NCBI RefSeq assembly: GCF_003334765.1
Contig: NZ_QOWT01000019.1
Direction: 5' to 3' (one strand)
Length of the DNA: 64,000 bases
From: Escherichia coli
Lineage (GTDB): Bacteria; Pseudomonadota; Gammaproteobacteria; Enterobacterales; Enterobacteriaceae
Shown here piece by piece: positions 62,485 to 64,000 of this stretch (positions are counted from its first letter, which is position 1; each line of letters starts with the position of its first letter). The notes beneath the pieces were generated by a model. The model ran no database searches and was not told the origin of the DNA. It worked only from the letters and a program-made list of their open reading frames with translations. The translations under genes and the position numbers were made by a program.

Positions 62485-63642
62485 TTGAAACGTAGTCTGC
62501 TTTTTTCTGCCGTGCTGTGTGCGGCGTCATTGACCTCCGTCCATGCGGCGCAGCCGATCACTGAACCGGAGTTTGCCTCTGATATTGTCGATCGTTATGC
62601 CGATCATATTTTTTACGGCAGCGGTGCCACGGGGATGGCTCTGGTTGTTATCGACGGTAACCAGCGCGTCTTTCGCAGTTATGGCGAAACGCGACCTGGT
62701 AATAACGTTCGCCCGCAGCTGGATTCGGTCGTGCGTATTGCTTCCCTCACCAAGCTAATGACCAGTGAGATGCTGGTGAAATTGCTCGACCAGGGGACCG
62801 TGAAGTTAAACGATCCGCTAAGTAAATATGCTCCGCCAGGCGCACGCGTGCCAACCTACAATGGGACGCCCATTACGCTGGTCAATCTGGCAACCCATAC
62901 CAGCGCCCTGCCCCGTGAACAGCCCGGTGGCGCGGCACATCGTCCGGTGTTTGTCTGGCCAACGCGCGAGCAACGCTGGAAATACCTTTCTACGGCGAAG
63001 CTGAAAGCCGCGCCAGGCAGTCAGGCGGCGTACTCTAACCTTGCGTTCGACCTGCTGGCAGATGCACTGGCGAATGCGTCCGGCAAGCCTTATACCCAGT
63101 TGTTTGAAGAGCAGATTACCCGTCCATTGGGGATGAAAGACACCACCTACACCCCCTCACCGGATCAGTGCCGCCGTTTAATGGTTGCTGAGCGCGGTGC
63201 CAGTCCGTGCAATAACACGCTGGCGGCAATTGGCAGCGGCGGCGTCTATTCCACGCCTGGCGATATGATGCGCTGGATGCAGCAGTATTTGTCATCTGAT
63301 TTTTATCAGCGCAGTAACCAGGCAGATCGCATGCAGACGTTGATTTATCAGCGCGCGCAGTTTACGAAAGTGATTGGCATGGATGTCCCCGGCAAAGCGG
63401 ATGCGCTTGGTTTAGGTTGGGTATATATGGCCCCGAAAGAGGGTCGTCCGGGGATTATTCAGAAGACAGGCGGTGGTGGCGGTTTCATTACCTATATGGC
63501 GATGATCCCGCAGAAGAATATTGGCGCGTTTGTGGTGGTCACTCGTTCGCCGTTGACGCGCTTTAAAAATATGAGCGATGGCATCAATGACCTGGTGACC
63601 GAGCTAAGCGGGAATAAACCGTTGGTTATCCCCGCGTCCTGA
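62485..63642 (+). CDS. ampH: Penicillin-binding protein AmpH (class C beta-lactamase fold)
   Basis: 385-aa ORF; signal peptide; active-site SxxK motif in IASLTKLM. Confidence 0.95.
   Translation: MKRSLLFSAVLCAASLTSVHAAQPITEPEFASDIVDRYADHIFYGSGATGMALVVIDGNQRVFRSYGETRPGNNVRPQLDSVVRIASLTKLMTSEMLVKLLDQGTVKLNDPLSKYAPPGARVPTYNGTPITLVNLATHTSALPREQPGGAAHRPVFVWPTREQRWKYLSTAKLKAAPGSQAAYSNLAFDLLADALANASGKPYTQLFEEQITRPLGMKDTTYTPSPDQCRRLMVAERGASPCNNTLAAIGSGGVYSTPGDMMRWMQQYLSSDFYQRSNQADRMQTLIYQRAQFTKVIGMDVPGKADALGLGWVYMAPKEGRPGIIQKTGGGGGFITYMAMIPQKNIGAFVVVTRSPLTRFKNMSDGINDLVTELSGNKPLVIPAS

Positions 63643-64000
<358 letters not shown>

Follow-up and report, generated by a model that had tools for sequence, protein, structure and literature searches.

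In Escherichia coli the convergent genes ampH and iprA (formerly yaiV) meet tail to tail without a single intergenic base, and the RNA of ampH is predicted to fold, starting 10 nt past the ampH stop codon, into a stable hairpin that lies within iprA codons 194-205 (K-G-K-L-V-A-I-N-R-L-P-S) on the opposite strand. This hairpin, designated H1, was found in a stretch of 64,000 nt (contig NZ_QOWT01000019.1, assembly GCF_003334765.1; hereafter the window), and its base pairs are preserved by compensatory changes in a large set of species. We consider it fairly likely that H1 is the 3'-end signal of the ampH mRNA, placed inside iprA, and that in E. coli and its near relatives this signal is most likely a Rho-independent terminator. 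The hairpin was overlooked in an earlier note on this DNA and is recorded here as the informative feature. AmpH is annotated as a peptidoglycan DD-carboxypeptidase/endopeptidase, and IprA homologues carry the Pfam domain PF15977 (HTH_46).

62485-63642, plus strand: ampH coding sequence, 385 amino acids (aa), TTG start, TGA stop at 63640-63642, from the list of open reading frames (ORFs) and RefSeq
63643-64000, minus strand: 3' part of iprA, comprising its last 119 codons and the TAA stop
63640-63645, no strand: stop-stop junction TGA/TTA, with no spacer and no common base
63652-63688, plus strand: hairpin H1, 16 base pairs, one A bulged out (63677), loop AUAG (63668-63671)
63655-63685, plus strand: conserved 8-bp core of H1, 63655-63662 with 63678-63685 (alignment columns 13-20 with 36-43)
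63685-63695, plus strand: U-rich tail UUUAUUCAUUU; its first bases take part in closing the outer stem, and in reverse complement it gives iprA codons E-M-N-K

H1 reads UGAAGGCAAACGGUUG-AUAG-CGACC-A-GUUUGCCUUUA, and its arms form an exact 9-nt inverted repeat (63654-63662 and 63678-63686). RNA folding in the ampH sense gave -20.9 kcal/mol with a z-score of -5.3, a stability equaled by none of 200 shuffled sequences, and the complementary strand, corresponding to the iprA sense, reached only -14.8 kcal/mol. The tail UUUAUUCAUUU holds 8 U in 11 nt. With regard to ampH, H1 is a stable, GC-containing stem-loop located past the stop codon, as required of an intrinsic terminator; on the iprA strand it finishes 7 nt upstream of the stop codon of iprA and is followed there by the tail UUCAGAGUAUUAA. 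No second copy of the H1 sequence was found in the 64-kb window, which rules out membership of a repeat family represented there, and no match to an Rfam covariance model was obtained at E-values up to 1 between 62300 and 64000 on either strand.

In order to compare H1 among species, the last 24 codons of iprA from 75 species were aligned without gaps. When the E. coli structure was imposed on this alignment, 86.9% of the cells were paired versus 81.1 +/- 0.5% after shuffling of the partners (0 of 500 shuffles reached the observed value), and sliding the partner out of register left 28-55% of the cells paired. The covariation score was 0.262 versus 0.169 for shuffled partners, again unreached in 500 shuffles. 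RNAalifold, to which no structure was supplied, returned the same 8-bp core, with 599 of its 600 cells paired. Core pair 13-43 is AU in 39 species, GC in 34 and GU in 2; pair 19-37 is AU in 51, GC in 22 and GU in 2; and at pair 16-40 a switch from C-G to U-A occurs in one species. The partners are synonymous positions of iprA, since Lys196 (AAA/AAG) and Arg202 (CGT/CGC) pair through their third codon bases, and so do Pro204 (CCT/CCC) and residue 194 (AAA, or AAG/CGG). Among 171 pairs of variable third-position columns scored by strong or weak (S/W) state, the three top associations are precisely the three predicted pairs of H1 (phi 0.95, 0.94 and 0.74), whereas unrelated column pairs reach at most 0.41; this ranking rules out a drift of G+C content at third codon positions as the cause of the covariation. 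On a rough, approximate neighbor-joining tree of ampH, parsimony requires the pair state to have switched no fewer than 7 times at one and no fewer than 11 times at the other of two H1 pairs, and consequently the changes arose repeatedly.

The choice of codons leads to the same point. The arms of H1 encode K-G-K-L and R-L-P-S, residues which are invariant or nearly so, and codon choice here is much more restricted than elsewhere among the conserved residues of IprA. In fact, Gly195 is GGC in 97% of the species, versus 30-46% at other Gly columns; Leu203 is TTG in 88%, a codon that accounts for 15% of all Leu codons in iprA; Leu197 is CTG in 86%; and Arg202 and Pro204 are limited to CGT/CGC and CCT/CCC, respectively. 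H1 accordingly behaves as a conserved structured RNA, in which pairs are kept by compensatory change beyond what relatedness or base composition provides.

Loci that lack ampH downstream of iprA, or in which a spacer separates the two genes, serve as natural controls. Atlantibacter-type iprA homologues without ampH next to them fold to only -8.7 and -3.0 kcal/mol in the corresponding region, and two Citrobacter paralogues, which have the same GKL...LP motif and unrelated genes next to them, reach -8.5 and -5.7 kcal/mol. At the places where the ampH-linked iprA genes use GGC, CTG and TTG, these paralogues use GGT, TTG and CTG. The idea that H1 is a by-product of amino-acid conservation is ruled out by these controls together with the codon statistics. 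In all four Buttiauxella species, a spacer of 33-39 nt holds a canonical stem-loop and a U run toward the ampH direction, and the in-gene hairpin has decayed to between -3.4 and -10 kcal/mol. In the Salmonella loci (S. enterica subspecies and S. bongori; L024, L059, L084-L086), the spacer of 42-44 nt contains an additional strong hairpin (GTCGCGCCTCG...CGAGGCGCGAC) with AUUUUU after it, also in the ampH direction, and H1 is retained beside it. The proposal that H1 decays whenever a spacer terminator exists therefore holds for Buttiauxella and fails for Salmonella, and loss upon redundancy is not a clean rule. The Salmonella spacer itself resembles an inserted element.

Pairing of H1 is also biased toward one strand. 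Among the core cells, 17 are G.U in the ampH sense, and hence A.C in the iprA sense, versus a single cell of the opposite type, which belongs to a Salmonella arizonae locus whose iprA is apparently degraded. The ampH-sense fold is the more stable one in 62 of the 75 loci and the iprA-sense fold in the remaining 13.

Some further observations on H1 may be mentioned at this point. A 10-nt inverted repeat, 90% complementary, joins 63614-63623 (ATAAACCGTT, within the ampH codons N-K-P-L) to 63660-63669 (AACGGTTGAT, in the 5' half of H1); it may offer an alternative to the pairing of H1 and compete with it, or be a chance match. In E. coli strain S163-2 (NZ_CP058709.1, approximately 2559-3300; L083), an IS1 element lies 17 nt past the ampH stop, inside the 5' arm of H1 (near window position 63659), and a second IS1 deeper in iprA leaves that gene fragmented; E. 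coli strain L9 likewise has IS1 in iprA. These insertions are rare natural knock-outs of the hairpin and of iprA.

The earlier note had stated that the TGA of ampH and the TAA of yaiV are adjacent with zero intergenic bases, and this is borne out by the sequence, the ORFs and the RefSeq annotation; both gene names were correct, iprA being the current name of yaiV. Positions 63631-63657 read CCC GCG TCC TGA/TTA ATA CTC TGA AGG, and the iprA stop is the reverse complement of 63643-63645. The minus-strand frame of iprA is open through all 119 codons to the end of the window and translates to a C-terminus ending in ...NKGKLVAINRLPSEY (longer stretch ...RKGGYIEMNKGKLVAINRLPSEY) before the stop; the gene, 207 aa in full, runs past the window end. 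The program-made ORF list shows iprA as a 77-aa ORF with a GTG start (63643-63876, minus strand), which is an artefact of the listing and not a truncated gene. RefSeq places ampH at 2146..3303 (plus) and iprA at 3304..3927 (minus) in E. coli strain 10, and iprA at 394506..395129 and ampH at 395130..396287 in K-12 MG1655. Both in the window and in RefSeq, the two coding sequences have 0 nucleotides in common, and they are therefore not convergent overlapping genes in the strict sense. The adjacency is already visible in public annotation and is, by itself, ordinary.

Within E. coli the junction is essentially fixed. DNA of the locus was matched in 5420 of 5426 complete genomes, and a 100-nt junction query was covered to at least 80% in 5411 of them, with every match at 95% identity or more; the sampled full-length matches all span exactly 100 bases. 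For the family Enterobacteriaceae, 80 species loci were collected by IprA alignment, or 81 with the annotated E. coli locus (L001), and ampH is the convergent neighbor of iprA in 78 and 79 of these, respectively. Among the 79 convergent loci, the stop-to-stop distance is -4 nt in 12, 0 in 15, 1 in 12, 2 in 16, 3-5 nt in 10, 11-17 in 7, 33-44 in 6 and 157 in one, and so does not exceed 5 nt in 65 of them. The spacing of -4 nt is a 4-nt overlap of both stops of the TTAA/CTAA type, and the zero spacing is seen in Escherichia and in some Citrobacter, Raoultella and Intestinirhabdus. AmpH ends, before its stop codon, in ...PAS in most species and in ...TASN, ...SNSP or ...SLD in the Enterobacter clade, and IprA always terminates in ...EY or ...DY at one and the same position; the spacing differs among genera because the AmpH stop shifts slightly. 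The comparison across relatives that the earlier note had called for thus goes partly against it: the tight packing is kept, but the exact zero is not, the distance in other genera ranging between -4 and +44 nt. Tight tail-to-tail packing is old, and the exact zero is a lineage state.

The zero spacing is neither unusual nor beyond chance. Huvet and Stumpf (PMC4161906) counted 663 overlapping pairs of neighboring genes in E. coli, 75 of them convergent, so that dozens of tail-to-tail pairs are packed more tightly than ampH and iprA. Within 50 kb around the locus in K-12, the annotation table lists nine convergent pairs with spacings of -21, 0, 16, 23, 58, 77, 106, 223 and 244 nt. The sole locus with a 157-nt spacer, that of Citrobacter amalonaticus S646 (L008), also has a different AmpH end (...ELSQNRF), pointing to an insertion or rearrangement in the 3' end of ampH; its in-gene hairpin is intact, at -16.9 kcal/mol.

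From these data a model can be drawn for the 3' ends of both genes. We hypothesize that, with ampH and iprA packed tail to tail, the room for 3' signals has been absorbed into coding sequence, and that, for want of a spacer, the final 15 codons of iprA carry the 3' hairpin of ampH on their antisense strand. Transcription of ampH would stop about 50 nt into iprA, near 63692-63696 (K-12 395080-395076, minus strand; a predicted position), and the remaining 3' stem-loop would protect the ampH mRNA. Selection would then confine iprA here to those few synonymous codons that preserve the stem, the constraint arising because the same bases encode the C-terminus of IprA (KGKL...RLPS). On the iprA strand, H1 is weaker, lies upstream of the stop and would be melted by translating ribosomes, and for these reasons it would normally not stop transcription of iprA. 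Transcripts of ampH would accordingly end, or be trimmed, at H1, and those of iprA would be expected to run on into the 3' end of ampH. The earlier note had concluded that the convergent transcripts must overlap at their 3' ends. Its logic is sound, as any 3' untranslated region must lie in the coding sequence of the partner; overlap of the actual transcripts is a predicted consequence, to which the strand-specific hairpin 10-46 nt past the ampH stop points indirectly on the ampH side; the iprA side offers only a weak, clade-limited hairpin, described below.

Several results weigh against a Rho-independent terminator at H1. The U tract, present in Escherichia, Citrobacter, Salmonella, Kluyvera and Trabulsiella types (with 4-6 U among the 8 nt that directly follow the stem in Citrobacter, Salmonella, Kluyvera, Trabulsiella and Pseudocitrobacter types), is replaced by CCGGCUCAUAUU, with 1-2 U, in Enterobacter, Lelliottia and Leclercia types. 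In this last clade residue 194 is Arg (CGG), and the stem is kept and has gained three G-C pairs, from which it follows that the conserved function there is the stem itself; more generally, the conserved function may be the stem rather than intrinsic termination. A simple terminator scan flagged the inner 5-bp stem alone. In Salmonella, H1 is maintained at -16 to -18 kcal/mol, which leaves two tandem terminator-like hairpins behind ampH. The wobble asymmetry of the core is partly forced by the sites that iprA coding allows to vary, and the strand evidence is consequently taken as good, not perfect. Regarding transcripts, no usable 3' end of ampH or iprA was found in the readable Term-seq and long-read supplements (Adams 2021, Dar and Sorek 2018, Choe 2022, TERMITe 2025, Grunberger 2022 and Yan 2018). 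Adams et al. 2021 (supplementary file 2) report a Rho-dependent region at K-12 395316, minus strand, classed as internal to ampH, with a Rho score of 2.48 and p 5.5e-5 in 800-nt windows; this position is about 186 nt upstream of the ampH stop (near window position 63456). In the absence of bicyclomycin, 57 reads were counted downstream and 56 upstream of 395316, both low counts, and with bicyclomycin the downstream coverage, which comprises the 3' end of ampH and RNA antisense to iprA, rose from 57 to 247 reads. Equal coverage does not resemble efficient termination at H1 and is matched at least as well by read-through with subsequent action of Rho as by efficient intrinsic termination. As context on the supporting side, ampH appears as a monocistronic unit with starts at 396318, 396319 and 396363 in the SMRT-Cappable-seq data.

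The clade without U and the Rho-dependent region make a barrier to 3' exonucleases the main rival of the intrinsic terminator, even if an unlikely one in our judgment. According to this explanation, ampH transcription runs on antisense to iprA, Rho stops it diffusely on the untranslated RNA, and the RNA is trimmed back to the stem of H1, which would fix the mature 3' end of the ampH mRNA and its stability. The ends of Rho-dependent transcripts are reportedly trimmed back to stem-loops. RNA 3' ends of such transcripts are the subject of Dar and Sorek 2018 (PMC6061677). The barrier would account for a stem that is kept, and even strengthened, in the Enterobacter clade devoid of a U tract, and for the Rho-dependent region reported on the ampH strand around the 3' end of ampH and iprA antisense, where coverage does not fall in the absence of bicyclomycin. 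Nevertheless, UUU(A/U)U, a classical intrinsic signal, directly follows the stem in E. coli, Citrobacter, Salmonella, Kluyvera and others, and the Rho signal has a resolution of 800 nt, modest significance and low read counts. An overlapping bidirectional terminator, at which the RNA polymerases (RNAPs) of ampH and iprA would pause, collide head-on and be released, with H1 as a common 3'-end element, appears improbable. Ju et al. 2019 (SEnd-seq) and a follow-up preprint (bioRxiv 10.1101/2022.10.23.513370) describe overlapping termination sites at hundreds of convergent E. coli pairs, which need a stem-loop, differ from intrinsic terminators and are Rho-independent. The genes are indeed convergent, and hairpins exist on both strands in the common zone; however, H1 is located upstream of the iprA stop and not downstream of both stop codons, so that release there would yield non-stop mRNAs. 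Moreover, the wobble pattern favors a single strand, and both genes are apparently weakly expressed, which makes frequent collisions unlikely. A collision-type terminator is in short possible, with a poor fit to the geometry.

It is still less probable that the inverted repeat acts in the iprA mRNA, by slowing ribosomes or protecting the 3' end, or as a DNA operator, for example for IprA. Any hairpin exists on the complementary strand too, the iprA-sense fold is preferred at a minority of loci as noted above, IprA is a helix-turn-helix (HTH) protein, and symmetric operators also change symmetrically. In contrast, the excess of core cells that pair as G.U solely in the ampH sense does not suit this explanation, nor do the paralogues, which have the same C-terminal motif and no ampH downstream and are devoid of the hairpin despite any need intrinsic to iprA; the repeated flips between AU and GC counted on the rough tree, at bases that a protein bound to an operator would read, sit badly with a constant binding specificity. 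The least probable explanation is that nothing here is functional, the hairpin being a by-product of the KGKL and RLPS motifs and the zero spacing a chance drift of stop codons. The arms do encode the invariant G195, K196, L197, L203 and P204, the zero spacing falls within the normal convergent range, and the spacing drifts among genera through AmpH C-terminal extensions. Covariation at synonymous sites, restricted codon choice and a paralogue motif that gives no hairpin oppose it, and as far as the hairpin is concerned this explanation is largely refuted; for the exact zero spacing it stands.

The preferred reading of H1 as a terminator of ampH finds several parallels among known systems. As in intrinsic terminators, a GC-cored stem-loop lies a few bases past the stop, is followed in E. 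coli by a U-rich run and sits on the sense strand of the upstream gene, and a stability of -20.9 kcal/mol is typical; unlike them, H1 lies wholly in the coding sequence of a convergent neighbor instead of a spacer, the base of its stem is A-U rich, its stem persists in a large clade without a U tract, and its 3' end is a predicted one. With the bidirectional terminators of SEnd-seq it has in common the convergent pair, the 3' signals on the same DNA and the hairpin in the common zone, but H1 precedes the iprA stop, so that it cannot serve as a productive terminator for iprA, and the signature of selection is one-stranded. Convergent overlapping genes likewise evolve by movement of stop codons at their 3' ends, and a 4-nt overlap exists here in 12 of 79 species, whereas in E. 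coli only the untranslated 3' signal of ampH overlaps the partner gene. In RNA structures embedded in coding sequences, pairing is similarly kept by selection at synonymous sites; in contrast to those, H1 would act on the antisense transcript of iprA and not on the mRNA of iprA itself. Finally, like REP elements and other 3' stabilizers, a 3' stem-loop such as H1 could block 3'-5' exonucleases, although H1 is single-copy and has neither a repeat family nor an Rfam match. H1 would work like an intrinsic terminator or 3' stabilizer, and like other terminators common to convergent genes, and is a tidy, testable case of overlapping constraint, not a new mechanism.

A single stretch of DNA would in this manner have two uses, the C-terminus of a protein on one strand and the 3' structure of an RNA on the other, and the compensatory synonymous changes can be seen throughout an entire family of bacteria. 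Recoding the 3' end of iprA "silently", or deleting it, would probably alter ampH expression, which is relevant to gene knockouts, codon optimization and genome refactoring, and terminator finders confined to intergenic DNA miss signals such as H1. The embedded hairpin is also one possible reason for ampH and iprA staying together. No description of the ampH-iprA (yaiV) junction or of the hairpin was found in the literature collection searched, which is incomplete. A HusR SELEX peak and a CyuR motif were set aside as junction features, as they concern the middle and the promoter of yaiV.

For the 3' end of iprA, a second hairpin was considered.

63608-63635, minus strand: hairpin H2 in the iprA-sense RNA, 10 + 2 pairs, no U tract

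H2 starts 7 nt past the iprA stop, inside the ampH codons S-G-N-K-P-L-V-I-P-A, and folds to -14.8 kcal/mol (z -1.9) in the iprA sense versus -12.2 kcal/mol (z -1.0) in the ampH sense. All 10 pairs are present only in Escherichia and the C. freundii group, with a mean of 6.8 of 10 elsewhere. Given the clade-limited pairing, the z of -1.9 and the lack of a U tract, H2 was rejected as a conserved iprA terminator, and it is a weak candidate for a 3' structure of iprA. Each of the two hairpins, H1 and H2, folds more stably in the RNA of the gene whose own stop codon precedes it. A regulatory interlock, in which transcription or translation of either gene modulates 3'-end formation of its partner through H1 and H2, is doubtful; the ribosomes or RNAP of iprA would melt or occlude the ampH terminator, and the overlapping 3' ends would form a duplex sensitive to RNase III. 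If true, an enzyme that remodels peptidoglycan would be coupled to a regulator of resistance to peroxide, and the two genes would be tied to each other in evolution (79 of 81 loci convergent).

Some observations concern the neighborhood of iprA and the databases. Directly upstream of iprA, on the same strand, lies an autotransporter gene (L001 4015-6661; yaiT in K-12, a pseudogene split by IS3), and an autotransporter is likewise found upstream of two Citrobacter iprA paralogues at other loci (loci noted: L082, L084-L087, L089). That an autotransporter and an IprA-like HTH_46 regulator are kept together in paralogous places hints at a functional link. A metagenome contig of 4908 nt from the European Nucleotide Archive (ENA) encodes a predicted protein of 259 aa (P0073) that joins IprA residues 1-125 to about 133 C-terminal residues of AmpH in one frame, a fusion for which either an inversion between these convergent genes or a mis-assembly would have to be assumed. 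The locus of 'Chryseobacterium sp. 18061' (L069) is apparently mislabeled, being an Enterobacteriaceae iprA-ampH locus near-identical to that of Citrobacter sp. 18056 (L068), and the same appears to apply to 'Citrobacter freundii M-21' (L078), which groups with Atlantibacter (L077) and has no ampH beside its iprA-like gene.

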